NCBI GenBank assembly: GCA_035706345.1
Contig: DASSVE010000163.1
Coordinates: forward strand, 12,095-76,094
Length of the DNA: 64,000 nucleotides
From: Acidimicrobiia bacterium
GTDB lineage: Bacteria > Actinomycetota > Acidimicrobiia > Spongiisociales > ZC4RG35
Direction: 5' to 3'
Positions 41,061-58,578 of the stretch are shown here, one piece after another (the first letter of the stretch is position 1; each line of letters starts with the position of its first letter). The position numbers and the translations under genes were made by a program. The notes beneath the pieces were generated by a model, which had not been told where the DNA came from, searched no databases, and worked only from the letters and a program-made list of their open reading frames with translations.

Positions 41061-41939
41061 GTGATTCCGAGCACGATCGAAGATCTCCAGCACGCCCTGG
41101 ACAGCCGCGACTACTTCGCCGGTGAGGACCTGACCGTCGCCATCCATCTGGCTCTCCAGCTGGGCCGACCCCTGTTCCTCGAAGGGGAGGCGGGCGTGGG
41201 CAAGACCGAGGTGGCCAAGGTCCTCGCAGCCATCGCCGGCGAGGACCTGATCCGTCTCCAGTGCTACGAGGGTCTCGACGTGGGCCACGCCCTATACGAG
41301 TGGGACTACGCCCTGCAGATGATGGAGATCCGCTTGCTCGAGGCTCGGGGCGAGGGGTCCAGGGCCACCGCCCGTGACATCATGAGCCGGGACTTCCTGA
41401 TCGCACGTCCGCTCCTGCAGGCGATCGAGTCCGCCCGCGGTGGGCGCCGCCCGGTCCTGCTCATCGACGAGCTCGACCGGGCCGACGAGGAATTCGAGGC
41501 TTTCCTCCTCGAGCTTCTCTCCGACTTCCAGGTCACCATCCCCGAGATCGGGACCATCGCCGCCGAGGACCCGCCCATCGTCGTCCTGACGTCGAACCGG
41601 ACCAGGGAGATCCACGACGCCTTGAAGCGACGCTGCATCTACCACTGGATCGACTACCCATCCCCCGAGTTGGAGGCGGCGATCGTCACCCGGAAGGTGC
41701 CCGGTGTCGAGGAGGATCTGGCCACCAGCCTGGCGGCGGCGATGGGTCGTCTCCGCCAGATGGACCTGTTCAAGCCACCAGGTGTCGCCGAGACGTTGGA
41801 TTGGGCACAGTCGCTGCAACTGCTCCACGACGGCGAGCTCACCGCGGCTCTGGCAGATCGGACCCTGGGGGTCGTCCTGAAATACAAGGACGACATCGAC
41901 GCCGTGCGTCAGGCCGGTCTGGAAGCACTGGTGGGATGA
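41061..41939 (+). CDS. coxD: MoxR-family AAA+ ATPase (CoxD)
   Basis: Walker A GEAGVGKTEVAK, Walker B LLIDELDRAD, sensor motifs. Immediately followed by a VWA gene. Confidence 0.85.
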   Translation: MIPSTIEDLQHALDSRDYFAGEDLTVAIHLALQLGRPLFLEGEAGVGKTEVAKVLAAIAGEDLIRLQCYEGLDVGHALYEWDYALQMMEIRLLEARGEGSRATARDIMSRDFLIARPLLQAIESARGGRRPVLLIDELDRADEEFEAFLLELLSDFQVTIPEIGTIAAEDPPIVVLTSNRTREIHDALKRRCIYHWIDYPSPELEAAIVTRKVPGVEEDLATSLAAAMGRLRQMDLFKPPGVAETLDWAQSLQLLHDGELTAALADRTLGVVLKYKDDIDAVRQAGLEALVG

Positions 41940-43063
41940 CCGGCCCGGTCCGGGACCTGGTCACTTTCGCCCAGGAGCTGCGCGGGCGCGGCCTCACCGT
42001 CACCCCCGACCAAGTGGCGGACATGACCCGGGCCATCACCCTGGTCGACCCGGCGAGCCGGTCGGAAGTCCACGCAGCCCTCCTCGCCCTGGCAGTGACG
42101 GACCCGGCCCAGCGGCGCTCGTTCGACGAGGTCTTCAGCCGCTTCTTCGAGGGGAGGTTGGATCCCGGCGGCGTCTCCGACCAGACCGGCTTGGCCACGG
42201 CCTCCGCGGTCAAGCCGATCGTCCAACCGATCGGCGAGATGCCCAGCGAGGCCACCCAGTCGCAGGCGGGCGCCTCCGCGATGGACCGTCTGGCCACAAG
42301 GGACTTCGCCGACCTGGACGAGGACCAGCTCAACGAGGCACGCCGGATGGTGATGGCCATGATGTGGCAGCCGTCCGACGTCAGGACGCGCCGCTGGCGT
42401 GTCTCCACCACCGGCGTGAGCCCGGACCTGCGCCGCACGCTGCGTGGCTCCACCCGCCCCGAGGGGGACCTCATGCCCATCGTGTTTCGGGAGAGACGAC
42501 GCCGCCAGCGACCACTCATCGTCATCGCCGACATCTCGGGGTCGATGGAGAAGTACGCCGAGCTGTTCCTGGTCTTCGCCCACGCCGCCCTGCGCCGTCT
42601 CGACGACGTCGAGGTGTTCACCTTCTCGACGCATCTCACCCGCATCACCGAAGACCTGCGGAAGCGGGACGCACGCGTGGCGCTGGACAAGGTCTCGGTC
42701 CGGGTGCCCGACTGGTCCGGCGGCACCAAGATCGGCGATGCGCTCGCCGACTGGAACAGGCTGTGGAGCCGCAGACTCGCCCGGGGTGGCCCCATCGCCA
42801 TGATCCTCTCCGACGGTTGGGACTGCGGGGACCCCGACGTGCTGGCGGTGGAGATCGCCCGCCTCGCCCGGACCGTGCACAGCATCCTCTGGCTCAACCC
42901 GCTGGCGGCCCGGACCGACTTCCGACCCGCCACCCGCGGCATGCAGACCGTCCTGCCCCACATCGACCACCTGCTCCCTGCTGCGAGCGTGGTCGATCTG
43001 AGGGGTGTGGTCCGGCTTCTCGACTCGATGGCCATGCCGGGCCCGCGAATTCACAATCACTGA
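41936..43063 (+). CDS. coxE: VWA-domain protein (CoxE family)
   Basis: C-terminal von Willebrand A domain with MIDAS (IVIADISGSM...T...LSDGWD). Start overlaps the coxD stop (ATGA). The ORF-track start 41801 is over-extended. Confidence 0.82.
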   Translation: MTGPVRDLVTFAQELRGRGLTVTPDQVADMTRAITLVDPASRSEVHAALLALAVTDPAQRRSFDEVFSRFFEGRLDPGGVSDQTGLATASAVKPIVQPIGEMPSEATQSQAGASAMDRLATRDFADLDEDQLNEARRMVMAMMWQPSDVRTRRWRVSTTGVSPDLRRTLRGSTRPEGDLMPIVFRERRRRQRPLIVIADISGSMEKYAELFLVFAHAALRRLDDVEVFTFSTHLTRITEDLRKRDARVALDKVSVRVPDWSGGTKIGDALADWNRLWSRRLARGGPIAMILSDGWDCGDPDVLAVEIARLARTVHSILWLNPLAARTDFRPATRGMQTVLPHIDHLLPAASVVDLRGVVRLLDSMAMPGPRIHNH

Positions 43064-43448: not shown

Positions 43449-44309
43449 ATGAAGTACGACGCCCCCCGCTCTCTGGAAGAGGCCTGTTCCCTGCTCTCCG
43501 AGGGTGGTGGCGAGGCCAAGATCCTCGCCGGGGGCCAGAGCCTGGTCCCGATGCTCAAGCTGCGCTTCGCCTCACCCGAGATGCTGGTGGACATCAACGA
43601 GATCCCGGGTCTCGACTACCACGAGCGCGATCCTGACGGCGCCATCCGGGTGGGTGCCCTGTGCCGGCACGCCGACCTGGAACGGTCCGACCTCCTCGCC
43701 CGGCACCAACCGACCATGGCCGGGGCGGCACCCCTGGTCGCCGACCCGATCGTGCGCAACCGGGGCACGCTGGTCGGCTCGCTCTGCCATGCTGACCCGC
43801 AGGGCGACTGGGCATCGGTCGTGACCGCCCTGGACGGCTCGGTTGTGGCCCACAGCTCGAGAGGGCGGCGCACGATCCCGATCAGGGAATTGTTCAGCGG
43901 GCCTTTCCAGAACACGCTCGCCTACGACGAGATCGCGGTGGAGGCGGTGCTGCCGGCGCCAAAGGGCACCCCGGCCGGCGGTTACCTGAAGCTGGAGCGA
44001 CGGGTCGGCGACTACGCCACCGTCGGCGTGGCCGTGGCCGTCGATCTCGCCGCCGCCAAGGTGGCACGGGCCGGCATCGGCCTCACGGGAGTCGGTGGCT
44101 CCACCATCGCTGCCGACGAGGCGGCCGCCCTCCTCGTAGGGCAGTCGCTGTCACCCGAGCTCATCGGTGAGACCGCCGAGCTCGCCGCCCGGGCCGCCCA
44201 GCCGCACAGCGACCATCGCGGCAGCGCCGACTTCAAACGGCAACTGGTGCGGGTCTTCACAACACGTCTTCTGAACAGCATCACCAGGTCCGGAGAGGAG
44301 GCGGCCTGA
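43449..44309 (+). CDS. coxM: Carbon monoxide dehydrogenase medium subunit (FAD-binding)
   Basis: FAD-binding PCMH fold ([15 protein letters not shown]...) and CO dehydrogenase flavoprotein C-domain. Confidence 0.9.
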
Positions 44310-44310
44310 C

Positions 44311-44865
44311 ATGACCAGTCTTTTCGAGGAGATCAGCCCGGCCCCGGCCGACGACGTCCCTGTTCGCCAGGTGACCTTGACGATCAACGGGGAGCGGCGC
44401 TCCGCCATGGTCGAGCCCCGGCTCCTGCTGGTGCATCTGCTGCGGCAGGGTTTCAAGCTGACCGGCACCCACGTCGGATGTGACACGACCAACTGTGGCG
44501 CCTGCACGGTGCTGTTCGACGGCCGGCCGGTGAAGAGCTGCACGATGCTGGCCGTCCAGGCCGACGGCCACGATGTGATGACGGTGGAAGGCCTCGCCGG
44601 GCCCAGCGAGCTGCACGCCCTCCAGGAAGGGTTCAAGGAGGAGCACGGCCTCCAGTGCGGGTTCTGCACCCCGGGGATGATGATGGCGTCCAAGGCCCTG
44701 CTCGACGAGAACCCGCACCCCACCGAGGACGAGATCCGGTGGGCGCTCAGCGGGAACCTGTGCCGCTGCACGGGCTATCAGAACATCGTCAAGGCCGTCA
44801 TGTGGGCGGCGGACAAGCTCAGCCAAGGTGTTGCACCGGAGACCGATACGGAGGTGATGGCGTGA
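44311..44865 (+). CDS. coxS: Carbon monoxide dehydrogenase small subunit (2x[2Fe-2S])
   Basis: Plant-type ferredoxin cluster motif [11 protein letters not shown] and second cluster CGFCTPGM...CRCTGY. Confidence 0.92.
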
Positions 44866-47246
44866 CGGCTGTCGATGAGGTCAAGATCGGCGGTATCGGA
44901 GCCAGCCGGAAGCGGGTCGAGGACAACCGGTTCATCCGAGGCAAAGGCAACTATCTCGACGACATCACGCTGCCCGGGATGTTGCACATGGAGATCCTGC
45001 GCAGCCCCCTGGCACACGCCCGGATCAACTCCATCGACATCTCCAAGGCCATGGCCATGCCCGGTGTCCGCCTCGTGCTCACCGGGGAGATGATGGCGGC
45101 GCGCAACCTGGCGTGGATGCCGACGCTCTCCTACGACACCCAGGCAGTGCTGGCCACCGACAAGGTCAGGTTCCAGGGCCAGGAGGTCGCCTGCGTCATC
45201 GCCGACGATCCCTACATCGCCAAGGACGCCTGTCAGGCCATCGTCGTCGACTATGAGCCGCTCCCTGTCATCGTCAACCCGAACCAGGCGCTGGCCGACG
45301 GGGCGCCTCTGATCCGCGACGACAAGGAGAACCAGCCCGACAATGTGATCTACGACTGGGAGGTGGGCGACAAGGAGGGGACCGACCGCGCCTTCGCCGA
45401 GGCGGACGTCATCTCCAAGCTGGAGCTGCACTATCCCCGCTCCCACCCCTCCCCCATCGAGACCTGCGGGTCGATCGCCGACTTCAACCGGGCCACCTCG
45501 AAGCTGACCGTCTATCTGACCACTCAGGCGCCGCACATCATCCGGGCCGCGGTCGCCCTGGTCGCCGAGCTCCCCGAGCAGATGATCAGGATCGTGGCCC
45601 CTGACATCGGCGGCGGCTTCGGAAACAAGGTCCCGGTCTACCCGGGGTACGTGGCCTCCATCCTGGCCTCCATCCTCCTGGAGCGGCCGGTCAAGTGGAT
45701 CGAGGATCGGACCGGAAACCTGATCTCGACCGGTTTCGCCCGCGACGTCTACCTGAAGGGCGAGCTGGCACTTCGGCGTGACGGGAAGATCCTCGGTGTG
45801 CGGATGAACACCCTGGCCGACCATGGCGCCTTCTTCTCGGACGCCCAGCCCTCCAAATTCAAGATCGGGCTGATGCACTCGGCGTTCGCCTGTTACGACA
45901 TCCCGACCGCCCATCTGGTCGCCCGGGGCGTGTACACCAACAAAGCGCCCGGCGGGGTGGCCTACCGCTGCTCCTTCCGGATCACCGAGGCGATGTTCTT
46001 CCAGGAGCGAATGGCCCAGGCCGCCGCCGACGACCTGGGGATGGACCAGGCCGAGTTCCGCCGGATCAACTTCGTGCGCGACGACGACTTCCCGCACCGG
46101 ACCCCATTCGGGTTCCTGACCGACTCGGGTCAATACGGGAAGTGCCTGGACGTCGGTCTGGAGGCCATCGGCTACCAGGACTTCCTCCGCCAGAAGGAGG
46201 AGGCGGCCAAACGGGGCCGTCTGCTCGGGATCGGCATCTCGACCATGACCGAGCCGCTCGGCGCCGGCAACAGCCGGGAGTACGACATCCTCGGTATCAA
46301 GATGTTCGACTCCGCGGAGTTGAAGATCCACATGACCGGGAAGGCGCTCCTCCGCACTGGCGCCAAGTCCCAGGGTCAGGGGCACGAGACGACGTGGGCG
46401 CAGATCGTCGCCCACGAGCTCGGGATCCCGGCCGAGGACGTGGCCGTCGAGGAGGGCGACACGGACACGGCGCCGTTCGGCATGGGCACCTACGCATCCC
46501 GCAGCACGCCCGTGGCCGGGGCCGCCGTGGCCATGGTCTCCCGCAAGATCAGGGCCAAGGCTCGCAAGATCGCCGCCCATCTCCTCGAGATCTCCGAAGA
46601 GGACGTCGAGTGGGAGCTGGGCCGCTTCTACGTCCGGTCCAACCCCGAGCGGGGCGTGACCATCCAGGAGTGCGCGGCAGCCGCTTACTCCAACATGCCC
46701 GACGGAATGGAGCCCGGGCTGGAGAACGTGGCCTACTACGACCCGCCCAACCTCACCTGGCCCTTCGCCTGCTACATCGCCACGGTGGAGGTCGACCCCG
46801 AGACCGGGGTGTGGGATGTGCTCCGGGTGGTGGCCGTGGACGACTGCGGCGTCCGCATCAACCCGATGATCGTCGAGGGTCAGATCATGGGTGGTCTCAC
46901 CGAGGCGTACGCCATGTCCAACATGCAGTTCATCACCTTCGACGAGAACGGCAACTGCATCGGGGCCAACTTCACCGACTACCTGCTGCCCACCGCCTGG
47001 GAGACCCCGGGATTCGAGCTGCACGAGGTGGTCACGCCCTGTCCTCACCACCCAATCGGGGCCAAGGGGATCGGCGAGTGCGCCGCGGTTGGTGGCCCGG
47101 CCGCCTTCGTCAACGCGGTGATGGACGCTCTCAAGGGCACCGGGGTACGGAACATCGACATGCCCCTGTTCCCGGACCGTGTCTTTCAAGCTCTGCAGAC
47201 CGGTCGGGACGTGAGCGGCGCACCCCCGGTGAGGGTCGACGCATGA
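44862..47246 (+). CDS. coxL: Carbon monoxide dehydrogenase large subunit, form I (molybdopterin MCD cofactor, Mo-S-Cu site)
   Basis: GTG start overlapping the coxS stop. Active-site loop VAYRCSFR (form I AYXCSFR signature) and MoCo-binding GGGFGNK motif. The ORF-track start 44655 is over-extended. Confidence 0.9.
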
Positions 47247-48172
47247 GCCCGAGGTCGGGCGAGGGTTGGCGGATCCTGCAGCTGGCCGACGAGTTGGCCG
47301 CCAAGGGCGAGAAGTTTGCCCTGGCCACCGTGGTCTGGCGGCAGGCCCCTTCATCCGGCCATGAGGGCGCCCGCGCCATCGTCACCGCCGACGGGGAGAT
47401 CCACGGGTGGATAGGCGGGGCCTGCGCCGAGCCGGTCGTGATCCGTGAGGCGCAACGGGTGATGGCCGAAGGCGAACCGCAGCTGATCCTGCTCGGCGCG
47501 CCCGATGACTTCGGTCATGTTCCCGAGGGCATGCTGCAGGTCCCGATGGCGTGCCAATCGGAGGGGGCTTTGCAGGTCTACATCGAGCCGGTCCTGTCTG
47601 CACCGCGTCTGGTGGTGGTGGGCCGGTCCCCGATGGCGACCACCCTGGTCGACCTGGCATCGATCCTGGGGTGGCGGGCCGAGTTGGTCGACTCCCATGA
47701 CTTCACCGCCGACCGGGTCGAGAGGGACGCCATTGTCATCGTCGCCACCCAGGGCCACGACGACGAGGACACCCTGGAGCGGGCCGTGACCGCAGACCCC
47801 GCCTTCGTCGGCCTGGTCGCCTCCCGGAAACGGGGCGAGGCCGTCCTCGGATACCTCGCCGACCGTGGTCTCGACAGGGAGTCGCTGCAGAGGGTCCGAT
47901 TCCCTGTGGGGGTGGATCTCGGGCACACCACACACAACGAGATCGCGGTCTCGGTGCTCGCCGAGTTGGTCTCCCTCCGGGCCAAGGGCGAGCTGGAAAG
48001 AACCGCGACGGCCGTCACCGAGCCGCCGGCCACCGCCATCGACCTGGTTTGCGGGATGACCGTGCCGGCCGACGAGACCAGCCGCCCGTTCGTCTACCAA
48101 GGCACCACTTACTACTTCTGCGCTCCGGGATGCCGGACCGCGTTCGAGAAGAACCCGACTGCCTACCTCTGA
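47243..48172 (+). CDS. coxF: XdhC/CoxF-family accessory protein fused to a C-terminal YHS/TRASH-type metal-binding domain
   Basis: XdhC_CoxI N-domain (FALATVVWRQAPSSGHEGARAIVTADGEIHGWIGGACAE), Rossmann-like XdhC_C domain (PRLVVVGRSPMATTLVDLASILGW), C-terminal DLVCGMTVPADE...YYFCAPGCRTAF (YHS motif). Confidence 0.8.
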   Translation: MSPRSGEGWRILQLADELAAKGEKFALATVVWRQAPSSGHEGARAIVTADGEIHGWIGGACAEPVVIREAQRVMAEGEPQLILLGAPDDFGHVPEGMLQVPMACQSEGALQVYIEPVLSAPRLVVVGRSPMATTLVDLASILGWRAELVDSHDFTADRVERDAIVIVATQGHDDEDTLERAVTADPAFVGLVASRKRGEAVLGYLADRGLDRESLQRVRFPVGVDLGHTTHNEIAVSVLAELVSLRAKGELERTATAVTEPPATAIDLVCGMTVPADETSRPFVYQGTTYYFCAPGCRTAFEKNPTAYL

Positions 48173-48184
48173 GGAGAAGACAGA

Positions 48185-48769
48185 GTGCTGATCAAGAACT
48201 CGATCGAAGTCGACCAGCCGATCGACAAGGTGTGGGAGTTCTGCCAGGACGTGCCCCAGGTCGCGTCGTGTCTCCCCGGCGCCGAGCTCACCGACGAGCT
48301 GGGCCCCGACCAGTACGCCGGGAAGGTCGGTATCGCCATGGGCCCGGTCAAGATGCAGTTCGCCGGGACCGCCGACGTCAAGCAACGCGACCCCGAGACC
48401 AAGACCATCATCATCGACGCCGCCGGCGCCGACGCCAAGGGGCAGGGTCAGGCGGCCCTGGGGCTCTCCGTCCGTCTGGTCCCCACGGCCGGTGGCACCA
48501 GACTGGAGGTGGAACAGGACATACAGCTGTCCGGGGCCGCGGCCCAGTACGGGCGGGGCATGATCAGCGACGTCTCACAGGTGATGATGCGCGACTTCGC
48601 CGTCAACATGCAGGCCCGTCTCGACGCGTTCGCCCGTGGCGTCAGCCCGGCCCAGGTGCAGACGGCGCAGAGTGCAAGCGGGCTCACGATCGGTTTGAGG
48701 GCGGCGTGGATGGCCTTGAAACGGGTGGCCAGGCGCTTCTTCCTCCCCTACCAGCCAACGGGTAACTGA
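48185..48769 (+). CDS. coxG: CoxG (SRPBCC-family CO dehydrogenase subunit G)
   Basis: MLIKNSIEVDQPIDKVWEFCQDVPQVASCLPGAELTD...DAAGAD...; polyketide-cyclase-like SRPBCC fold typical of CoxG. Confidence 0.8.
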   Translation: MLIKNSIEVDQPIDKVWEFCQDVPQVASCLPGAELTDELGPDQYAGKVGIAMGPVKMQFAGTADVKQRDPETKTIIIDAAGADAKGQGQAALGLSVRLVPTAGGTRLEVEQDIQLSGAAAQYGRGMISDVSQVMMRDFAVNMQARLDAFARGVSPAQVQTAQSASGLTIGLRAAWMALKRVARRFFLPYQPTGN

Positions 48770-48779
48770 GGAGGTCGAC

Positions 48780-49034
48780 ATGACATGGTGGTGGATCGGG
48801 AACGTGATCCTGCTGGTAGCGGTGATCCCCGTGCTGATAGCCCTGCTCAACCGGGTGCTGGCGGCGCTGGAGCGGATCCGGGGAGCATCGGACCGGATAT
48901 TGGCGGGCGGTGTGCAACTGATCGGAGAGGTCGATCGGGTGCCTGAGCTGCTCGCAACGACAGACGAGACCATCGAAGACGTGTCGGTCGGCGCGGTCAG
49001 GTACGCCGGGTCGGTCGCCAAGCTGCTGGGTTGA
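48780..49034 (+). CDS. Small single-pass membrane protein, paralog 1 of 5 (84 aa)
   Basis: N-terminal TM helix (WWWIGNVILLVAVIPVLIALL) then an amphipathic helical segment. GAGGAGG RBS. GC3-rich. Confidence 0.6.
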   Translation: MTWWWIGNVILLVAVIPVLIALLNRVLAALERIRGASDRILAGGVQLIGEVDRVPELLATTDETIEDVSVGAVRYAGSVAKLLG

Positions 49035-49044
49035 GAGGAGAGTC

Positions 49045-49272
49045 ATGCCAGCTGCAGCCGTAGTCACCCTGGTGCTAGCGACGCTGATAATCGCCGCCGC
49101 GGCACTGGGCCTCATCCGGGTTATAGGCCATCTCTCGGCGATCTTGAAGACGCTGCGCGCCCTCACCGGAGGCGTCGATGTGGTCGCCGAGAAGACCAGC
49201 ACCGTTCCCGCCGTCGTCGGTTCTGTGAACGCCAACCTGAAGCCGGTCAGCGACTTCGCCGAGTCGATCTAG
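49045..49272 (+). CDS. Small single-pass membrane protein, paralog 2 of 5 (75 aa)
   Basis: TM helix (AVVTLVLATLIIAAAALGLI) plus amphipathic tail. GAGGAGAG RBS. Confidence 0.6.
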   Translation: MPAAAVVTLVLATLIIAAAALGLIRVIGHLSAILKTLRALTGGVDVVAEKTSTVPAVVGSVNANLKPVSDFAESI

Positions 49273-49278
49273 GGGGTC

Positions 49279-49542
49279 GTGATGAGTGAATTGTTCGAGG
49301 GCAACACCGGCTGGCTGGTCGGATACATCATCGGGATCGTCGTGGTCCTGGTGGTCGTGGCGCTGGTGGTCCCGATCCTGGTCCTGGCCCGAAAGATCGG
49401 GAACGAGGCGGAGCTGATCAACGAGAGCCTGAAGCGGTCCGTGCAGAACACGGCCGCCCTGGCCGATCTGGCCACCACCAACACCATGGCGATCAACGTC
49501 ATCGAGGGCCTGAAGCGCGGTCGTCAGCGTCTGGGAGGTTGA
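49279..49542 (+). CDS. Small single-pass membrane protein, paralog 3 of 5 (87 aa)
   Basis: TM helix (WLVGYIIGIVVVLVVVALVVPILVLA) plus amphipathic tail. AGGGGG RBS. Confidence 0.6.
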   Translation: MMSELFEGNTGWLVGYIIGIVVVLVVVALVVPILVLARKIGNEAELINESLKRSVQNTAALADLATTNTMAINVIEGLKRGRQRLGG

Positions 49543-49832
49543 GGATGGTTCTAGGACTCACCGAATCGCAGGAGACCCTTTGGACCATCGCCAACTGGGC
49601 CGGGCTGGCCGTTGTCGTGGCGGTGGCCGTCCTGCTCACCATCCTGGTTCTCCTGGTGCGGCGGATCGATCACAAGGTGGTCGAGATCAAGGCGACCCTG
49701 AAAGAGGCCGAGGCCAACACCGCCAAGGCCTCCCTGCTCGACACCACGTCGGCGGGCGTCGACATGGTCCTCGCCGAGGGTCTCGAGCATCACCTCTTCC
49801 TGGGCCGGGTGCTGGGGAAGGTGCGCTCATGA
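49539..49832 (+). CDS. Small single-pass membrane protein, paralog 4 of 5 (97 aa)
   Basis: TM helix (WAGLAVVVAVAVLLTILVLLV) plus amphipathic tail. ATGA overlap with paralog 3. Confidence 0.6.
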   Translation: MRMVLGLTESQETLWTIANWAGLAVVVAVAVLLTILVLLVRRIDHKVVEIKATLKEAEANTAKASLLDTTSAGVDMVLAEGLEHHLFLGRVLGKVRS

Positions 49833-50188
49833 ACGGGCTGGTGCTGTTCACCGTGATCGACATCGTCCTGCTGATCGCCGGTCTGGCGATCTACCTCTGG
49901 ATCGTCGGCTCACAGCTCAATCGGATCGCAGCCAATTTGGAGGAGTGCGACGAGCTGGTGGCGAAGATCAACGCCAATGCCGCCACCATCGAGGGCAACC
50001 TCGAGCACGTGAACCGGACCGGCGGTGTCATCGCCGGCGCATTGCCGCTGCTGTACAGCATGGCGGAGGGCATCGTCACCGGGGCCACCTACGACCCGGA
50101 GAAGGTCCCGGAGCGTGGCCCGGCCGTGCCCGCGTCCGGTCGTCGGCGTTCCCGACTCCACGAGGCGGTCGGCTACCGGCCGGACTGA
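49829..50188 (+). CDS. Small single-pass membrane protein, paralog 5 of 5 (119 aa)
   Basis: TM helix (LVLFTVIDIVLLIAGLAIYLWIV) plus a longer amphipathic tail. ATGA overlap with paralog 4. The ORF-track start 49580 is over-extended. Confidence 0.6.
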   Translation: MNGLVLFTVIDIVLLIAGLAIYLWIVGSQLNRIAANLEECDELVAKINANAATIEGNLEHVNRTGGVIAGALPLLYSMAEGIVTGATYDPEKVPERGPAVPASGRRRSRLHEAVGYRPD

Positions 50189-50189
50189 G

Positions 50190-50633
50190 TCAGGGTCGGG
50201 ACGGGTCCCGACCCGTGGTCAGGGGGCCGGTGGTGCCGGGGGCGTCGTAGTCCCCGATCCAGTGCTCCTCCCAGGCCTGGTCGTAATGGTCGGAGTTGCA
50301 CCCGGGTTTGTAGATGGCGACCAGCTCGCGGGTGATCTGCTCCCGATGCGTCGGCAGCGCTCCCGGTGCCTCCAGATAGCAGACGTGGAGGCGGTAGCGA
50401 TCCCCTCCCACCCTGTTCAGCCAGCACCGGGCTGCGGGATGACGAAACGGGAACCCCTCCCCGCTCAGGTCGTCGCTGTGACCGACGTAGATCACTCCGT
50501 AGCGCTCGGGTTTGGCCTCAGGCTCGGGCCGATAGAGGAGGGCGTAGACACCGGCCCTCTTGGGCGGTGTCCAGCCGGCGAGGAGCCGGGGACCCTCGAA
50601 CGAGTAGCCGGCGAGGGTGCCGAGACGGATCAC
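50190..50633 (-). CDS. Hypothetical protein with a GIY-YIG-nuclease-like motif set (147 aa)
   Basis: GVYALLY...(17 aa)...YGVIYVGHSDDLSGEG...R...E...ELVAIYKPGCN resembles the GIY/YIG-R-E-N pattern of the GIY-YIG superfamily. GTG start overlapping (GTGA) the upstream acidic-protein gene. Confidence 0.45.
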   Translation of the reverse strand: MIRLGTLAGYSFEGPRLLAGWTPPKRAGVYALLYRPEPEAKPERYGVIYVGHSDDLSGEGFPFRHPAARCWLNRVGGDRYRLHVCYLEAPGALPTHREQITRELVAIYKPGCNSDHYDQAWEEHWIGDYDAPGTTGPLTTGRDPSRP

Positions 50634-50953
50634 TCGGCCTCCTCCCCGGTGACCCAGGCGTCGGGTATGTCCTGGTACCAGTCCATCTCCTCCTCGTCGG
50701 CGATGGTCTCCACGTTCACGATGGGCCACACCGGCAGACCGGCCTTCTGGACCGCCTCGCCGAACACGTCCCGGGCCAGGAGAACCGCTTGGTCGGAGTC
50801 GTCGGCCTCGACCAGGATCTGGATGCCATAGGAAGGCGTGCCCATCCCGGTGGCGATGCCACCGTGGACCGCCACGGCGTCGGCCAGCTCCACCACCTCA
50901 TCGAGGGAGATCACCCGATCGCCCTCAGCCTGCAGTGACACACTCCACATCAT
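50630..50953 (-). CDS. Hypothetical acidic protein (107 aa)
   Basis: GC3-rich; Asp/Glu-rich C-terminus (ADEEEMDWYQDIPDAWVTGEEAE). Translationally coupled to the downstream GIY-YIG-like gene. Confidence 0.45.
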   Translation of the reverse strand: MMWSVSLQAEGDRVISLDEVVELADAVAVHGGIATGMGTPSYGIQILVEADDSDQAVLLARDVFGEAVQKAGLPVWPIVNVETIADEEEMDWYQDIPDAWVTGEEAE

Positions 50954-50960
50954 GAGACGC

Positions 50961-52097
50961 TCATCTCAGGCCGGGGAGCACTTCGGCCAGCGACTCCAGC
51001 CCGGCCAGGTCGCGGCCCGACATCAGGAGGTCGATGTGTGGCTCGGCCACGATCATTCCGAGGCTGCCGGGGAGGTCTCCGACGTCCTCGCCGACATGGG
51101 GGTTGACCCACACCACCTTGTGGCAGAGCAGCGAGAGCCTCTCCATCGCCTGTTCGAGGACGGCGGGATCGCCTCGATCGAGCCCGTCGGAGCAGATGAC
51201 GACGATCGCCCCACGGCTCATCCCGCGGCGACCCCATCCCTTCACGAATGCAGTGATCGAATCGCCGATCCGGGTCCCACCCTCCCAGTCGAAGACGAGA
51301 CGGGCGGCCCGATCCAGTGCATCGTCAGGTCTCCGTCTCTCCAGGGCCGGGGTGATCCGGGTGAGACGGGTCCCGAAGCAGAACACCTCGACCTTGGTGC
51401 TGGCGCGCCGTGCCGAGTAGGCGAACTGCAGCAGGTTGCGGGAGTACTCGGCCATGGATCCGGAAACGTCCAGAAGCAGGACCAATGGCCGGATCTTGGG
51501 CCGTCGGCTGCGCCAGAACAGCTCTGTTGGCTCCCCCTGCTGACGCATGGTGGCCCGGACCGTCCTTCGCAGGTCGGGGCGACCCGATGCCGCCGGCCGG
51601 GTCCGTCGGGTTCGGCGTCGGGGCGGGATGAGCTTCATCCGGTTCATGATCCGACGCAGGGCTGCGAGCTCCTCCTCGGTGCAGAGTGCGAAGGCCTTGT
51701 TGCGCCAGATCTCGATGTCCGACGCCACCAGACCGAGGGTCGCCTCCTCCTCCCGGTCCGTGCCCTCCGGGCCCGATTCGGTGGCCGGGACCTCGATGAC
51801 CGCCTGGTTCTCGATCTCCGATCTCTTCAGGACGGCGCGCACCGGCTCGGGCAGCCGGTCGTCGTAGCCGAGGAAGTAGCGGCGGAACACCCGGTCGTAG
51901 ATGGGGATCTGCTCCCGTTTCGTCAACAGGGTGGTCCTCCCCGCCCAGTACAGGTCGAGGATGTCACCCGGCTCCAGGACCGCCATGGCGGCGCAGTAGG
52001 CGAGCACCTCGCCGGTCCCCACAGCCAGGCCCTCGTCTCTCAGCTCGGCGCCGAAGTCGGCGACCATCTCCACGAAGGGGAGACGGTCGTCAGCCAT
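50961..52097 (-). CDS. VWA-domain protein (second CoxE-like paralog)
   Basis: C-terminal VWA with MIDAS (LVLLLDVSGSM...T...CSDGLD). Start overlaps the upstream MoxR gene by 8 nt. Confidence 0.8.
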   Translation of the reverse strand: MADDRLPFVEMVADFGAELRDEGLAVGTGEVLAYCAAMAVLEPGDILDLYWAGRTTLLTKREQIPIYDRVFRRYFLGYDDRLPEPVRAVLKRSEIENQAVIEVPATESGPEGTDREEEATLGLVASDIEIWRNKAFALCTEEELAALRRIMNRMKLIPPRRRTRRTRPAASGRPDLRRTVRATMRQQGEPTELFWRSRRPKIRPLVLLLDVSGSMAEYSRNLLQFAYSARRASTKVEVFCFGTRLTRITPALERRRPDDALDRAARLVFDWEGGTRIGDSITAFVKGWGRRGMSRGAIVVICSDGLDRGDPAVLEQAMERLSLLCHKVVWVNPHVGEDVGDLPGSLGMIVAEPHIDLLMSGRDLAGLESLAEVLPGLR

Positions 52098-52959
52098 CGA
52101 CCAGCTCGTCGATCCGCTCCAGGACCATCTCGAGGTCGTCCCGCTCCTTGACCACGGCACCCAGAGTCTCGGAGGCGGTGACCTTGTCGAGATCGGGCTC
52201 GCCCAGGACCTGGAGAGTGCTGACCCAGTCGATGGTCTCGGCGACGCCGGGCGGCTTGGCCAGGTCGAGCTGGCGCAGACGGTTCACCGCCGCCACCACT
52301 TTGCGGGCGATCTCCTCGGTGGCGCCAGGTGCCCGCACCAGGACGATCTCGACCTCCCGCTCGGCGGACGGGTACGGGACCCAGTGGTACAGACAGCGCC
52401 GTTTCAACGCGTCGTGCAGCTCGCGGGTCCGGTTCGAGGTCAGGATCACCAACGGCGGCGAGTCGGCGCTGATGGTCCCGATCTCGGGGATGGTGATCTG
52501 GAAGTCGGAGAGCAGCTCGAGCAGGAAAGCCTCGAACTCGTCGTCGGCGCGATCGATCTCGTCGATCAGCAACACCGCTGTCGACCCGGCGCGGACGGCG
52601 GTGAGAAGCGGTCGCTCCAGGAGGAACTTGGGGCCGAAGAGCTGGTCCACCTGGGTCTCGTCGGCGAGCTGCGCCTCGGAGAGGGCGCGGATCTGCAGCA
52701 TCTGACGGGCGTAGTCCCACTCGTACAGGGCCTGGTTGGTGTCGATGCCCTCGTAGCACTGGAGACGGATCAGACGACGATCGAATACCGAGGCCAGCGC
52801 CTTGGCCAACTCGGTCTTGCCCACCCCGACCTCACCTTCGAGCAACAGGGGCCGACCCAGCTCCATGGCCACGTAGACCGCCGTGGCCAGACCGCGGTCA
52901 GCAAGGTACCCGCCCTCGGCGAGACGCTCGGTCAGGGTGGCGACGTCGGTGGGGGCCAT
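52090..52959 (-). CDS. MoxR-family AAA+ ATPase (second CoxD-like paralog)
   Basis: Walker A GEVGVGKTELAK, Walker B LLIDEIDRAD. Roughly 55% identical to coxD at 41061 by eye. Confidence 0.85.
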   Translation of the reverse strand: MAPTDVATLTERLAEGGYLADRGLATAVYVAMELGRPLLLEGEVGVGKTELAKALASVFDRRLIRLQCYEGIDTNQALYEWDYARQMLQIRALSEAQLADETQVDQLFGPKFLLERPLLTAVRAGSTAVLLIDEIDRADDEFEAFLLELLSDFQITIPEIGTISADSPPLVILTSNRTRELHDALKRRCLYHWVPYPSAEREVEIVLVRAPGATEEIARKVVAAVNRLRQLDLAKPPGVAETIDWVSTLQVLGEPDLDKVTASETLGAVVKERDDLEMVLERIDELVDG

Positions 52960-52975
52960 GCCCGGCCCCTCCCCG

Positions 52976-53230
52976 CTACTGATCGTTCCGGCCAAGGACG
53001 AGGTCGCGGATCGAGCCGCCGTCGGTGCTCAGCTTCCCCTCACGCTCCAATCGGGCCCGCCAGGCGGCGCCGATGTCGGTGCCGGGCTCGGCGAGCCCGT
53101 CGAAGGACACTCCCCGCATGTTCCGGCACGGCTTGGAGGGGCTGCAGTCCTCGTCTAGGTCGAAATGATCGTGACTCACCATCCAGACCGACTGGAGGAC
53201 ATCGGCGCTGGTGTCTTCCTGGGCATTCAT
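52976..53230 (-). CDS. Small hypothetical protein (84 aa), translationally coupled (ATGA) to the upstream XdhC gene
   Basis: GC3 about 85%. Start overlaps the xdhC stop. No recognisable motif. Confidence 0.4.
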   Translation of the reverse strand: MNAQEDTSADVLQSVWMVSHDHFDLDEDCSPSKPCRNMRGVSFDGLAEPGTDIGAAWRARLEREGKLSTDGGSIRDLVLGRNDQ

Positions 53231-54147
53231 CGCTCGACCAGTCTACCGGCGGAGGCCCGCTCGGCTATCGCCTCGGCCACGATCGAGACCGCGATCTCCT
53301 CCGGTGAGTCGGCCCCGATGTCGAGCCCTGCAGGGCCCCGTACCCTGCTCAGGTCGGTCTTGCCCCGGTATGCCAGCCAGTCGGCCCGATCGCCCTGCAT
53401 CTTGTGACTCCCCACCGAGCCGATGTACCCGGCACCACTGTCCAGGGCGGCGGCGAGAGCCGACCCGGCCAGCTCCAGGTCGTGCGCAGCCACCACCACC
53501 ATGTCGTTGGCCGACGTGGTCGCGATCAGACCGGTGGCTTCGGCGGTGCTCGTGCTGAGACGCGACTGCCAGCCCAGGTAGGCGCCCAGCGAGACCAACG
53601 CCTCGGCAATCGGCCCGCCGCCAACGACGATCAGTTGGGGGACGGCGGAGAACACCGAGACCACCCGATTCTCGGCGATGGTCGAACCCGGTGGCCCTTG
53701 GAACGCCTCCCGAATCACATCGTCGGCGTCGGCGACATTCTCCTCCCAGTAGACCTCGCCGGCAACCACGGTGTCGTCGGCCAGCCGGACGTCGAGACAG
53801 AACTTGCGGCGCTCCAGAGCCAGGTCCCATACCCCTCCGGGAATCGTCTCGGCAGGAATCACCAGACATGTGGCGCGGCCACCGGATGCCAGACCGGCGA
53901 TCAGGGCGTCGACCTCGGAGACCTCGAGCTCTACGAGCCTGCCCTCGGCGAGTCTCCCGACGTGATCGGCGAGCTTCCCGTCGAGTGCGCCGCCGGCGAC
54001 ACCACCGATCCGGCCCCCACCCGGTGTGAACACGACGGCATCGGAAGGGTCGGAGACCGCCAGTCCCTCCGAGGCCACTATCCAGGCCACATCAGCCCTG
54101 GTGCCCGCCTGGAGACACGCCGCAACGGTGAGCGCGATGCTGTACAT
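53227..54147 (-). CDS. XdhC/CoxI-family molybdoenzyme maturation factor (306 aa)
   Basis: N-domain (AWIVASEGLAVSDPSDAVVFTPGG...GGALDG) and Rossmann-like C-domain (PQLIVVGGGPIAEALVSLGAYLGW). ATG at 54147. The ORF-track start 54429 is over-extended. Confidence 0.78.
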   Translation of the reverse strand: MYSIALTVAACLQAGTRADVAWIVASEGLAVSDPSDAVVFTPGGGRIGGVAGGALDGKLADHVGRLAEGRLVELEVSEVDALIAGLASGGRATCLVIPAETIPGGVWDLALERRKFCLDVRLADDTVVAGEVYWEENVADADDVIREAFQGPPGSTIAENRVVSVFSAVPQLIVVGGGPIAEALVSLGAYLGWQSRLSTSTAEATGLIATTSANDMVVVAAHDLELAGSALAAALDSGAGYIGSVGSHKMQGDRADWLAYRGKTDLSRVRGPAGLDIGADSPEEIAVSIVAEAIAERASAGRLVER

Positions 54148-54196
54148 GACGGGGACTCTACGTCCAGGTCCTGAATGAGAGTCGACGGCTACCGTT

Positions 54197-54511
54197 GTGC
54201 GCATGAGAAGCCAATTGGCACTCCGTGACAAGTGGGTCAGCGAGGGCAAGAAGGTGGCCGTGGCCACGGTGATCAAGGTCCACGGCAGCGCCCCCCGACC
54301 GGAAGGGTCCAAGTTCCTCGTCTCGTCCGACGGTGACATGGAGGGCTCGGTGAGCGGGGGTTGTGTGGAGAACGACGTCTTTCTCCATGCCCAGGAGGTC
54401 ATCGAGACCGGGAAGCCCAAGAAGGTCACCTACGGCATCGCCGACGAGGACGCCTTCGAGGTCGGCATGTCCTGCGGCGGCACCATCGACGTCTTCATCG
54501 AGCCCTGGTGA
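54197..54511 (+). CDS. Stand-alone XdhC_CoxI N-terminal-domain protein (104 aa)
   Basis: [41 protein letters not shown]...[10 protein letters not shown], the canonical XdhC N-domain including the GGC motif. Confidence 0.65.
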
Positions 54512-55281
54512 GCGATCTGAATCAGGCCATCCAGAGCCTGCTCGACGCCGAGGTCTTCGGCTCGGTCGCCACCGTCGTCGAGGGCCCGGACACGGGGGCC
54601 AAGGCGGTGATCGACGGCGCCGGCGTGATACTCGCCGGTGAGCTCCCGGCGGCCATCGTCGACGACGTCGTCGCCGACGCCCGGACACTGATGAGTCACG
54701 AGCAGCATCGAACCCTCGACTACGGCGAGCACTCCGTCTTCATCGAGACCCTGGCCCCGCCCCCCGATCTCCTCATCTTCGGTGCGGTGCACATCGGCCA
54801 GGCCCTGGCTTCCTTCGCCACCCAGATGGGTTATCGGGTCACGGTCGTGGACTCGAGGGCCCCCTTCGTCACCGAGGCCCGGTTCCCGACGGCCCATCGT
54901 CTCCTGGTGGGCTGGCCCCGGGATCTCATGGACCAGCTCCAGTTCGACCGCCGCACCTGGGTGGTCGTGCTGTCCCACGACCCGCGGCACGAGACCCCTC
55001 CGCTGGAGGCCGCGCTCAAGTCGGAGGCCCGCTACATCGGGGCCATGGGATCGAGACGCACCCACGATCTGAGGGCTGCCCGGCTGAAGGAGCTCGGGTT
55101 CGACGACGAGGACCTGGCCAGGATCCACTCCCCCGTCGGCCTCGACATCGGCGCCGAGACCCCGCAGGAGGTCGCGGTGTCGATCCTGGCCGAGATGACG
55201 TTGGTCCGGTACGGAGCCGGCTCGGGGATCTCGCTGCGCGGGGTCGAGGGCCGGGTCCACAAGCAACGCGGAGACGAGTGA
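54508..55281 (+). CDS. XdhC-family protein (second XdhC_CoxI-like segment plus Rossmann-like XdhC_C domain). GTG start overlaps the preceding stop (GTGA) in a different frame, so this may be a split or frameshifted gene.
   Basis: [28 protein letters not shown]...[28 protein letters not shown]...IGAMGSRRT. Confidence 0.65.
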
Positions 55282-55986: not shown

Positions 55987-58578
55987 ATGCTGTTGCTGGA
56001 GCGGGAGGCCCTGGTTGCTGCTCTCGACGAGCGTCTGACCGCGGCGGCATCGGGGTCAGGGTCACTGGTGCTGATCGCAGGTGAGGCCGGGGCGGGCAAG
56101 ACCTCGCTGATGCGCTCCTTCGTCTCCTCGGCGGGCGAGCGGGTGCTGGTGATCGAGGGCGCCTGCGACCCGCTCACAACCCCCCGGCCAATGAGCCCGC
56201 TGCTCGACTTCGCAGCCGATCCCGACTCGGGGCTAACGGGCATCGTTTCCGAAGGTCGGACCGGAATCGACGTGTTCGCCGAAGTCCTCGACCGGCTGAG
56301 GAACTCGATCCGTCCCATAGTGCTGTTCATAGAGGACATCCATTGGGCCGACGACGGCACGCTCGACTTCCTTCGCTACATCGGGCGACGTATCACTCAG
56401 ACCAAGTCGGTCATGGCCTGCACCTACCGGGACGACGAAGTGGGTGTGGATCACCCGCTTCGCTCGGTTCTCGGCCAACTGGTGCCACTCCCCTCCACGC
56501 ATCGCCTGACCGTTCCGCCGCTGACCCTCGATGCGGTCGCCCTCCTCGCCAAGGACCAGGCCCTGGATCCAGAGGAGCTGCTCGACCTCACCGGGGGCAA
56601 CGCCTTCTTCGTCACCGAGGTGCTGGCGACCGGCTCGGACCTGCCGGCCACGGTCCAGGATGCCGTCCTGACCCGGGTGGCAGGGCTCGGTCCCGAGACG
56701 CGCAGGGTGGTCGAATCGGTCTCGATCGCCCCCCGCTCTCTCGAGATCGACCGGGCTGCGGCACTGGCGAAGACCAGCGTCGAGAGCGCCGACGAGGCGG
56801 TCGGCGCCGGTGTGCTGCGCAGCGACGGTGTCAGCCTGGGCTTCAGGCACGAGATCGCCCGCGCCGCCGTCGAGGCGGCCATCCCGCCGGCCCGTCGTCT
56901 CCAGATGCATCGGTCGATGATCGCTCTCCTCGAGGAGGAGGGGATTCGGGACGCGGCCCGCATGGCCCATCACGCTCGTGAGGCACAAGAGCCGCATCTC
57001 ATCGCCCTCTACGCGCCCGAGGCAGGAGAGCGCGCCCTCGCCAATGGCGCGAGACGGGAGGCGGTCGAGTTCTACCGAACGGCCCTGGACCACGGAACCG
57101 GGATGGACGAGGATGCAGCCGCCGACCTCAGGGTGAAGCTGGGGAGCCAGCTCCGGATCATCGATCGGCCCGAGGAGTCGATCGAGCATCTCGACCTGGC
57201 CATAGCCCGCTACCGGGAGACGGGCGCCACCGAGAAGCTGGCCGACGCATTGGGTCTCCTCCAGGGGGCGTTGTGGAACCTGCGCCGCTTCGCGGGAGGT
57301 CAGGCTGCGATCGACGAGGCCATCGCCGCATTGGAGCCCCTCGGTCCTTCCGAGGCATTGGGCATGGCCCTCTACCGCGACGCCCACCACCAGATGCTGG
57401 CCCGCCACGCCCGCCCGGCCTTCGCGCAGATCGAACGCGCCGCCGCGATCGCCGATCGGGTCGGGTCGGAGCGGGTGGGATGGCTGGCGCAGATGATGAC
57501 TGGCACCATCCACATCGTGGTCGGCGATGCCGAAGAGGGGGCACGTCTGCTGGAACACTCGGCGCAGAGGGCCGAAGACATGGAGGACAGCCACTTCCTC
57601 TCCATTGCCCTTGGGATGTTGGGCAGTGGCGGCGGCGAGGCTCGTCTGTATCCAATCGCCATCGACGCCCTGGAGCGGGGTGTCGAACAAGGCATAGCCA
57701 CCGACGAGGACTACGGGGTCGCCTACAACCGGTCCTGGCTGGCACGAATCGCCTTCGAGCAGGGCCGGTGGGACGAGGTCTCCGAGATGACGGAGCTGGT
57801 CTACAGGAGCACCGCCCAGCGAGAAGGGATCGCCTTGCTGACGGCGATGAGCGCCCTGGGAAGGGTCAGGGTGCGACGGGGCGACCCGGGTGGGCTCTCG
57901 CTTCTCGAGGAGATGGTGGAGTTGGGAAGGGACCACGAGCTGCAGCACGCCTGGACCGCCATCTGCGGCAGGGCGGAGTATCACTGGCTCACCGGCGCCC
58001 CCGAGAAGGGTCTCGACGCCCTCGGACCGGCCTACGAGCGCGCCCTGGACACGGACAGCTCCTGGGCCCGCGGGGAGATCGGGTTCTGGATGTGGCGGGC
58101 CGGGGCCATCGACCGGCCCCCTCCTGGCGCCGCCGAGCCGTTCGCTTTGCAGATGTCCGGTGATTGGCGTGCCGCCGCCGACACCTGGAGGGCGATCGGC
58201 TGCCCCTACGAGGTGGCGATGGCGCTCGCCGACGGGGAGGTGGAGGACCAGCTGGAGGCGCTGGAGATCCTGGACGTCTTGGCGGCCCGCCCCCTTGCCG
58301 ATCGGATCAGGGCCTCGCTTCGCGACCGGGGCCATCCGGCGGTGCCGAGGGGACCAAACCGCGACACCATGTCCAACCCGGCGGGCCTGACCAACCGTCA
58401 ACTCGAGGTAGTCCGGCTCATAGCCGAAGGGCTCAGCAACGACGAGATCGCCGCCAGGCTGTTCCTGTCGAAGAAGACAGTCGAGCACCACGTCTCCGCC
58501 ATCTACTCCAAGCTGGGTGTCGAGACGCGCGCCAAAGCGGTCAAGGCCGCCGCCGAAGTCGGGGCGTTGCAGAGATAG
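55987..58578 (+). CDS. LuxR-family (LAL/MalT-like) transcriptional regulator: N-terminal AAA/NACHT-like ATPase, TPR-like middle, C-terminal LuxR HTH
   Basis: Walker A GEAGAGKTSLMR. C-terminal LTNRQLEVVRLIAEGLSNDEIAARLFLSKKTVEHHVSAIYSKLGV (LuxR/FixJ HTH). Confidence 0.85.
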   Translation: MLLLEREALVAALDERLTAAASGSGSLVLIAGEAGAGKTSLMRSFVSSAGERVLVIEGACDPLTTPRPMSPLLDFAADPDSGLTGIVSEGRTGIDVFAEVLDRLRNSIRPIVLFIEDIHWADDGTLDFLRYIGRRITQTKSVMACTYRDDEVGVDHPLRSVLGQLVPLPSTHRLTVPPLTLDAVALLAKDQALDPEELLDLTGGNAFFVTEVLATGSDLPATVQDAVLTRVAGLGPETRRVVESVSIAPRSLEIDRAAALAKTSVESADEAVGAGVLRSDGVSLGFRHEIARAAVEAAIPPARRLQMHRSMIALLEEEGIRDAARMAHHAREAQEPHLIALYAPEAGERALANGARREAVEFYRTALDHGTGMDEDAAADLRVKLGSQLRIIDRPEESIEHLDLAIARYRETGATEKLADALGLLQGALWNLRRFAGGQAAIDEAIAALEPLGPSEALGMALYRDAHHQMLARHARPAFAQIERAAAIADRVGSERVGWLAQMMTGTIHIVVGDAEEGARLLEHSAQRAEDMEDSHFLSIALGMLGSGGGEARLYPIAIDALERGVEQGIATDEDYGVAYNRSWLARIAFEQGRWDEVSEMTELVYRSTAQREGIALLTAMSALGRVRVRRGDPGGLSLLEEMVELGRDHELQHAWTAICGRAEYHWLTGAPEKGLDALGPAYERALDTDSSWARGEIGFWMWRAGAIDRPPPGAAEPFALQMSGDWRAAADTWRAIGCPYEVAMALADGEVEDQLEALEILDVLAARPLADRIRASLRDRGHPAVPRGPNRDTMSNPAGLTNRQLEVVRLIAEGLSNDEIAARLFLSKKTVEHHVSAIYSKLGVETRAKAVKAAAEVGALQR

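Follow-up and report, generated by a model that had tools for sequence, protein, structure and literature searches.

Five unnamed families of single-pass membrane proteins accompany coxG in form I carbon monoxide dehydrogenase clusters of Actinomycetota and may dock the enzyme at the membrane

Much atmospheric carbon monoxide (CO) is removed through aerobic oxidation by the molybdenum-copper CO dehydrogenase (Mo-Cu CODH), a major sink that also aids the survival of soil and marine bacteria. To our knowledge, how this soluble enzyme is linked to the quinone pool of the membrane has come to light only recently, and for Mycobacterium alone. The form I cox cluster of Oligotropha carboxidovorans encodes the large polytopic membrane proteins CoxB, CoxC, CoxH and CoxK, for which anchoring and sensing roles have been proposed. 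In M. smegmatis, menaquinone is carried in the SRPBCC domain of CoxG, which is tethered by a C-terminal transmembrane helix following a flexible linker (Kropp et al., 2025; PMC12202499). The present analysis concerns a stretch of 64,000 nucleotides from an Acidimicrobiia bacterium (assembly GCA_035706345.1, contig DASSVE010000163.1, positions 12,095 to 76,094 of the forward strand; hereafter, the window), in which five small consecutive genes, s1 to s5, lie directly after the coxG gene of a form I Mo-Cu CODH cluster.

Two described proteins from outside CODH clusters also bear on this cassette. HucM of the mycobacterial Huc hydrogenase, an enzyme that oxidises trace gas, is reportedly a helical accessory protein whose coiled-coil stalk, associated with the membrane, connects a soluble oxidoreductase with the menaquinone there; it is said to be a single protein that assembles into a homo-oligomeric tube and to lack an N-terminal transmembrane helix. 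FacZ of Staphylococcus aureus, a member of the DUF948 family (PF06103) from the Firmicutes, begins with a few residues outside the cell, then has a single N-terminal transmembrane helix and a membrane-proximal cytoplasmic coiled coil, followed by a positively charged disordered tail with an Arg-rich motif that binds GpsB (PMC10914604). FacZ is predicted to oligomerise into a rod that reaches approximately 15 nm into the cytoplasm (PMC10914604).

The genes at issue, with window coordinates, are as follows.

coxG, 48185-48769, + strand: Pfam COXG (4.7e-17); SRPBCC quinone-carrier domain, short linker, C-terminal helix.
s1, 48780-49034, + strand: 84 amino acids (aa); predicted N-out/C-in single-pass protein; motifs WWIGN, LLNRVLAALERIR, GGV and GAVRYAGSVAKLL.
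s2, 49045-49272, + strand: 75 aa; predicted single-pass protein; motifs RV..HL, GGV, T.TVP and SVNA.LKPV.DFCE.
s3, 49282-49542, + strand: 86 aa; predicted single-pass protein, paralogue of s4; motifs VVALVVPIL.LA..IG, NTAAL..L.TT and GL.RGR.RLGG.
s4, 49545-49832, + strand: 95 aa; predicted single-pass protein, paralogue of s3; invariant motif EGL.HHLFLGRV.
s5, 49829-50188, + strand: 119 aa; predicted transmembrane helix, coiled-coil region, GALPLLYGMAE segment and disordered basic tail PASGRRRSRLHEAVGY.

The cassette is a conserved, co-located and co-oriented component of form I Mo-Cu CODH clusters. Two sets of loci were compiled, one of 77 loci from one genome per species with s5 as the seed, and one of 80 further loci from an independent metagenome scan seeded only with CoxG's N-terminal domain. 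The s5-seeded loci come from Acidimicrobiia, Microthrixaceae, Nocardioides, Aeromicrobium, Micromonosporaceae, Streptosporangiaceae, Sporichthyaceae, Ca. Poriferisodalis and cultured Pseudonocardia strains; P. acidicola K10HN5 and P. bannensis DSM 45300 are examples of cultured carriers. A locus was counted as informative when it contained coxG and at least 1500 nt downstream of it (n=96). By tblastn, s1 to s5 occurred in order in 92 of these 96 loci; the remaining four comprised three in which tblastn had overlooked the s3 open reading frame and one with a frameshifted s5, so that the cassette is present in all 96, which span two classes of Actinomycetota. The conservation beside cox genes on which the earlier note on this DNA had staked its proposal was thus found. 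The CoxL motif AYRCSFR, present in the window and in 83 of 83 loci in which the site was covered, identifies the enzyme as form I, and CoxL of cassette-bearing loci is 76-96% identical to that of the window.

The spacing of the genes is also conserved. The gap between coxG and s1 has a median of 11 nt across loci; this is the value that the earlier note gave for the window itself, where the spacer is in fact 10 nt. The s3 and s4 genes lie 2 nt apart in 57 of 104 loci, and in 81 of 100 the last 4 nt of s4 are also the first of s5. Of two ATGA overlaps proposed in the window, the one between s4 and s5 (49829-49832) stands, but position 49539 reads TTGA, and the start of s4 is taken to be the ATG at 49545, 2 nt past the s3 stop, because the N-termini of orthologues and the NCBI annotation agree on it. 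Alternative starts are a GTG at 49279 for s3 and a TTG at 49539 for s4. The five starts are all preceded by the purine-rich ribosome-binding sites that had been noticed earlier (as listed, AGGAGG, AGAGGAGAG, AGGGGG, GGGAGG and GGGGAAGG).

That s1 to s5 are real genes, five in a row after coxG and 75-119 aa long as first described, follows from several observations taken together: their codon-position composition, the selection acting on them, the recovery of orthologues from more than 150 loci, the conserved ribosome-binding sites and stop/start coupling, and independent gene calls. The G+C content is 0.80-0.88 at third codon positions (GC3) and 0.38-0.46 at second positions (GC2) across the five genes, in a window of 67% G+C. 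Median ratios of nonsynonymous to synonymous substitution (dN/dS) are 0.23-0.48 for s1 to s5 and 0.40 for coxG, rough values from a crude Nei-Gojobori estimate with synonymous divergence near saturation, and coding potential is kept across orthologous loci. Identical proteins are deposited as HET8740313-317 from an Acidimicrobiia metagenome-assembled genome, in which the NCBI pipeline PGAP calls genes of the same five lengths, all annotated as 'hypothetical protein'.

In approximately a dozen cassettes, s2 and s3 are separated by a gene for an additional soluble protein, some 60 aa long (MYEFRCGSPVCKTHF...H..KH...), which truly belongs to DUF1059 (41.9 bits; cut-off 21.1). Its Cys and His residues are conserved, which hints at metal binding within the module. 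Its positions are as follows.

DUF1059 insert, L080:7154-7333.
DUF1059 insert, L081:7147-7326.
DUF1059 insert, L111:3604-3792.
DUF1059 insert, also in loci L033, L035, L046, L047, L056, L109, L110, L124, L137 and L138.

Two further observations concern individual records. In one locus (L075:1032-1193), s5 is reduced to its last 54 residues (87% identical) beside coxE/coxD, with no s1 to s4 or coxG upstream; either a cassette was rearranged and left this remnant, or the assembly is chimeric. Many records titled 'uncultured Acidobacteriota bacterium' (L002-L004, L007-L009, L011, L013, L014, L017, L018 and others) encode s5 proteins 81-86% identical to that of the window; the Acidobacteriota titles of these cox-bearing metagenome-assembled genomes may be mislabelled.

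The proteins share the architecture that the earlier note had described, an N-terminal transmembrane helix followed by an amphipathic segment, as hydrophobicity, periodicity and helix models all indicate. A single, strongly hydrophobic stretch lies at the N-terminal end of each (19-residue Kyte-Doolittle maximum 2.7-3.5; for s5, 2.68 at residues 3-21). None of the five families has a basic n-region, and the N-terminal flanks of s3 and s4 are acidic, while Lys or Arg directly follows the helix in all five orthologue families. Because Lys or Arg follows the helix and no basic region precedes it, the positive-inside rule predicts that the N-terminus of each protein lies outside and the soluble part in the cytoplasm, with a single transmembrane helix. 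The soluble parts of s1, s2, s3 and s5 have a hydrophobic periodicity of 3.4-3.5 residues, in line with the heptad-like character ascribed to them earlier, and in profile searches of PDB sequences residues 26-64 of s5 and 35-68 of s2 matched designed coiled coils only and nothing natural. AlphaFold2 models consist of one long helix each, for s5 (with alignment) spanning residues 2-85 with low confidence at 105-117, and for s4 (single sequence) all-helical over residues 3-94 with a predicted local distance difference test score (pLDDT) of 75; both are too featureless for a fold search.

Conservation lies mostly in the cytoplasmic parts: GAVRYAGSVAKLL in s1, SVNA.LKPV.DFCE in s2, GL.RGR.RLGG in s3 and EGL.HHLFLGRV in s4. 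In s5, the GALPLLYGMAE segment and the basic tail PASGRRRSRLHEAVGY are conserved, the tail motifs being kept in 53-62 of 73 sequences; s1 to s4 lack a long basic tail. Such near-invariant cytoplasmic motifs point to specific protein contacts.

The five had been regarded as paralogues of one another, which holds for only one pair. By hhalign of orthologue alignments, s3 and s4 are homologous (97% probability, E 8.8e-11, 75 columns), while all other pairs reached at most 47%, with P values of 1.9e-4 or weaker, which is the range of reversed-sequence controls (up to 36%). On these profiles, the cassette comprises one paralogous pair and three distinct families of like architecture. Neither s1 to s5 nor 18-35 orthologues of each reached a Pfam or NCBIfam cut-off; among the s1 proteins, 19 of 19 scanned members had no Pfam match, and profile searches of PDB sequences for solved relatives of s1 to s5 gave only designed coiled coils and chance matches. 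For s3, the family DUF2561 (PF10812) was considered; it matched 13 of 22 orthologues at E 1e-4 to 1e-2, below its cut-off of 27.8 bits and in the Val-rich transmembrane region only. Full-text searches of the literature, in which the recent surveys of CoxG and of marine CODH were covered, turned up no description of s1 to s5. The proposal of an undescribed module appended to the CODH operon, made up of proteins of no recognised family, is therefore upheld by linkage, by the family searches and by the literature. Membrane attachment of a respiratory dehydrogenase is known; s1 to s5 are new protein families.

The relatives of s5 were examined furthest. Database searches returned 4149 homologues at E<=1e-3, none with a Pfam domain, and an exhaustive search of 1.84 billion cluster representatives returned only 181 relatives, which indicates a narrow family; no s5 relative was found in plasmid records. 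The profile also picked up proteins of 120 aa, but these are encoded within cox clusters and are ordinary orthologues of s5. The most distant relatives, at 33-45% identity, are 120-170 aa long with Ala/Pro-rich tails ending in GVGYLD, and distant s5-like proteins (P0274, P0282, P0375, P0354; L078, L079, L083-L087) have tails with repeated GVGYLD/GVGYMD. Solitary s5-like genes adjoin rsfS/comEA/comEC, ligA or moeA, and the s5-type architecture is thus not unique to CODH. Three proteins were set aside. The top match of the exhaustive search, P0121, has 2718 aa and 13 matched stretches, but it is a repeat protein of adhesin-like type with a compositional match to the s5 coiled coil, and P0179 is a repeat artefact of the same kind. 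P0222 (325 aa), a candidate Rosetta-stone fusion, has an s5-like N-terminal domain, but its second half is unrelated to s3 or s4, so that it is uninformative on contacts between the proteins.

Several known kinds of membrane protein resemble s1 to s5 in part. A form I cox cluster is also the source of the membrane proteins CoxB, CoxC, CoxH and CoxK, but those proteins are large and polytopic, as the earlier note had judged, whereas s1 to s5 have 75-119 aa, one predicted helix each and no Pfam family in common with them. With HAMP-type modules they share a transmembrane helix followed by amphipathic helices with a Gly break (GGV in s1 and s2, RTGG in s5), but no signalling output domain follows in s1 to s5. 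One source labels the distant s5-like protein P0298 'HAMP domain-containing', but neither P0298 nor s1 to s5 matched HAMP (PF00672) at E<=1.

FacZ is the closest known match in layout and likely mode of action. The resemblance in layout is that of s5, with its predicted N-out transmembrane helix, coiled coil and basic disordered tail. FacZ differs in being a homo-oligomeric cell-division protein, whereas here five different subunits are encoded in the operon of a respiratory enzyme. The gathering score of DUF948 is 37.2 bits, and all matches fell below it: s5 of the window gave none at E<=1, 6 of 35 s5 orthologues matched with a best E of 0.0078, and 5 of 9 and 4 of 4 solitary s5-like proteins matched at E 0.005-0.17, the best score being 24.3 bits for the C-terminal half of P0222. 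The GpsB-binding motif (S/T/N)RxxR(R/K) was present in none of 73 s5 tails; this motif is a feature of S. aureus FacZ and not of the whole family. Remote homology to DUF948 is possible, for s5 only.

The C-terminus of CoxG also bears on the role of the cassette. CoxG of the window is related to that of M. smegmatis (PDB 8UDS chain D; E 8.5e-24), but the two end differently.

CoxG C-terminal helix, residues 165-190, 48677-48754, + strand: basic amphipathic, ..GLxIGLRAAWMALKRVxRRFFLPY.

M. smegmatis CoxG is 231 aa long; its linker, of about 60 residues, is rich in Pro, Ala, Glu and Thr, and its hydrophobic tail has a Kyte-Doolittle value of 1.83 and a hydrophobic moment of 0.21. In the window, the 19-residue Kyte-Doolittle maximum of the C-helix is 0.78 and its moment 1.19; CoxG proteins of the cassette clade have about 194 aa and a median C-helix Kyte-Doolittle value of 1.14 (n=68). 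Conservation of CoxG is as high in the C-helix (0.74) as in the SRPBCC domain (0.72), and lower in the linker (0.51). Such sequence-specific conservation suggests a protein contact rather than plain embedding in lipid, and we propose that residues 165-190 are a partner- or membrane-contact element. The M. smegmatis cluster (xdhC-coxM-coxS-coxL-xdhC-coxD-coxG-coxE), whose CoxL is 56% identical to that of the window, contains no relative of s1 to s5, nor of d107 or d179, two small genes of the window that are described below. The anchor of M. smegmatis CoxG holds CoxG, and through it Mo-CODH, at the membrane, which is the job proposed here for the cassette. It is, however, a hydrophobic helix within CoxG, with no small membrane genes, whereas the cassette clade combines an amphipathic CoxG end with five membrane proteins.

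Co-variation was explored in the 29 loci in which all proteins were complete, by regressing pairwise distances on CoxL distance and averaging the residuals of s1 to s5. In partial Mantel tests, which are liberal for related sequences, this mean residual correlated with that of the CoxG C-helix (r 0.50, Mantel p 2e-4) and with those of CoxM (r 0.46), CoxS (r 0.36) and CoxE (r 0.29); correlations with the CoxG N-domain (r 0.07) and CoxD (r -0.09) were not significant across the 29 loci. Only the contrast between partners is taken as suggestive.

The reading that we favour, tentatively and with a probability of roughly 45%, is that s1 to s5 form a hetero-oligomeric, membrane-anchored coiled-coil platform that docks CoxG and CODH at the membrane in the manner of FacZ. 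The five proteins would be subunits of one complex, mostly cytoplasmic and specific to the form I Mo-Cu CODH of this clade, each with its N-terminus outside, one transmembrane helix and a cytoplasmic amphipathic helix of 50-90 residues able to form coiled coils. Tight translational coupling would fix the proportion of the subunits. The assembled rod or bundle would be the docking site for CoxG and, via CoxG, for CoxMSL, the likely contacts being the basic C-terminal helix of CoxG and the conserved tail of s5. The quinone carrier would thereby be kept at the membrane, where it could take up menaquinone and return menaquinol, and the cassette would take the place of the built-in anchor of mycobacterial CoxG. 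Such a role, already suggested in the earlier note, would fit the predicted C-in topology, a CoxG that lacks an anchor of its own, and the co-variation with the CoxG C-helix and CoxM.

Several points weigh against this reading. The assembly of s1 to s5, their binding of CoxG or CODH, and a tethering purpose are all things that we infer from sequence and genomic context. A basic amphipathic helix can bind acidic lipids by itself, so that CoxG perhaps needs no protein dock, and the cassette-free contrast comes from one lineage, Mycobacterium, with a CoxL only 56% identical. The co-variation comes from liberal tests and extends to CoxS and CoxE. The distant s5-like proteins of Pseudonocardiales are encoded by solitary genes outside cox clusters. 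Finally, the DUF1059 Cys/His protein in some cassettes and a fusion of XdhC with a YHS domain in the operon point to metal handling.

The last of these points bears on the main rival, which involves the remaining genes of the cox region.

coxM, 43449-44309, + strand: head of the same operon as the cassette; form I Mo-Cu CODH structural gene.
coxS, 44311-44865, + strand: form I Mo-Cu CODH structural gene.
coxL, about 44862-47246, + strand: Pfam Ald_Xan_dh_C, MoCoBD_1 and MoCoBD_2; AYRCSFR at residue 367.
XdhC/CoxI-type maturation factor with a C-terminal YHS (putative metal-binding) domain, 47243-48172, + strand: XdhC_CoxI 4.5e-20, XdhC_C 2.3e-25, YHS 2.1e-11.
coxD, 52090-52995, - strand: convergent accessory operon (50190-52995); Pfam VWA_CoxE 6.6e-55 and AAA_5 2.3e-14 in the coxD/coxE pair.
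coxE, 50961-52160, - strand: convergent accessory operon.
d107, 50630-50953, - strand: unannotated conserved gene, about 95-107 aa across loci.
d179, 50190-50729, - strand: unannotated conserved gene, true start probably further in; about 145 aa in most loci.

Under this rival, s1 to s5 would be a membrane platform for maturation of the [CuSMoO2] site, recruiting CoxD (AAA+), CoxE (VWA), the XdhC/CoxI-YHS protein and perhaps a metal donor, with no tethering of the mature enzyme. We regard this as unlikely, although much of the neighbourhood would suit it. The XdhC-YHS fusion directly upstream is specific to the clade (it recurs in L080-L082, and the 245-aa M. smegmatis counterpart lacks the YHS domain), as are the conserved d107 and d179 joined to coxE and coxD, for which no Pfam or PDB relative was found. 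The convergent coxD/coxE/d107/d179 operon adjoins the cassette in most loci, and in one (L154) coxD-coxE-d107-d179 follow s5 directly on the same strand as one operon. The dozen or so cassettes with a DUF1059 Cys/His protein point the same way, as do the modest positive residual correlation of CoxE and the description, in PMC3471820, of O. carboxidovorans CoxD as a membrane protein. However, the cassette is coupled to coxG and the structural genes and not to coxD/coxE, which in most loci form the separate convergent operon, and CoxD shows no residual co-variation. Furthermore, the transmembrane helices have no conserved Cys, His or Met suggestive of metal passage, and the Cys residues of s2 and s5 are not invariant; in s2 of the window, Ala stands where orthologues usually have Cys.

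More doubtful still is the view that s1 to s5 are generic coiled-coil adaptors of the DUF948/FacZ type that place or regulate the enzyme, for example in a membrane domain or in dormancy, without having a direct role in either electron transfer or maturation. FacZ is itself an adaptor that acts via a tail motif, and solitary members of the s5 superfamily in the unrelated rsfS, ligA or moeA contexts, together with some s5 orthologues, give collinear sub-threshold matches to DUF948, but membership of that family is not established. Against this view, the cassette never varies in its linkage to coxG and keeps five distinct subunits, its purifying selection matches that on coxG in strength, and its co-variation singles out the CoxG C-helix and CoxM; taken together, these findings speak for a structural partner present in stoichiometric amounts and against a loose regulator.

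A further variant, which we consider improbable and rank below both of the above, is that s1 to s5 form a 1:1:1:1:1 hetero-pentameric helical stalk or barrel that would rise from the membrane and, beyond tethering, offer a hydrophobic path or hand-over site presenting menaquinone to CoxG or CoxM. If true, CODH would have a counterpart of the HucM stalk of the Huc hydrogenase that is made of five different single-pass subunits, and small-protein respiratory adaptors would gain a new class; the resemblance to HucM is functional and speculative. The suggestion that the frames are chance openings or mis-annotations, to which GC-rich DNA invites because high-GC genomes abound in long spurious open reading frames and several overlap the cassette in other frames, is effectively refuted by motif-conserved orthologues in more than 150 loci from two classes, by coding-type GC3/GC2 and dN/dS values, by conserved ribosome-binding sites and stop/start coupling, and by the same five calls from PGAP.

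Other features of the region concern transcription and neighbouring genes. On the + strand between 43000 and 51000, no terminator-like site was found, and no promoter-like site within the operon. One element lies just past s5.

Perfect 10-bp inverted repeat, 50193-50214, no strand assigned: 5 nt past the stop of s5, within the final codons of the convergent d179 frame.

The repeat folds with an energy of -28.4 kcal/mol and a z-score of only -1.9, marginally better than shuffled sequences. An intrinsic terminator after s5 was rejected, as the GC-rich hairpin has no T-run and a weak z-score; the repeat may be a bidirectional terminator. The cox region contains two CoxD/CoxE pairs, one upstream at 41061-43063 (+ strand) and the convergent one downstream at 50961-52995 (- strand), and three XdhC-like genes, with 53227-54429 (- strand) and 54361-55281 (+ strand) listed alongside. 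A second CODH cluster downstream in the window was considered and dismissed, the genes there being XdhC-like genes and a LuxR-type regulator. This large regulator, with AAA_16 and GerE domains (55987-58578), lies just past the cox accessory genes and may regulate them.

The cassette is carried by lineages that are abundant in soils and oceans, namely Acidimicrobiia and several orders of Actinomycetes. Their arrangement differs from that described for Mycobacterium: a CoxG without an anchor of its own is accompanied by five conserved, unnamed membrane subunits. If the docking role proposed here is correct, CODH in these bacteria would be a larger membrane-associated complex than current models assume, and five families of 'hypothetical protein' would gain a function. 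The presence of the cassette in cultured Pseudonocardia makes the idea directly testable.

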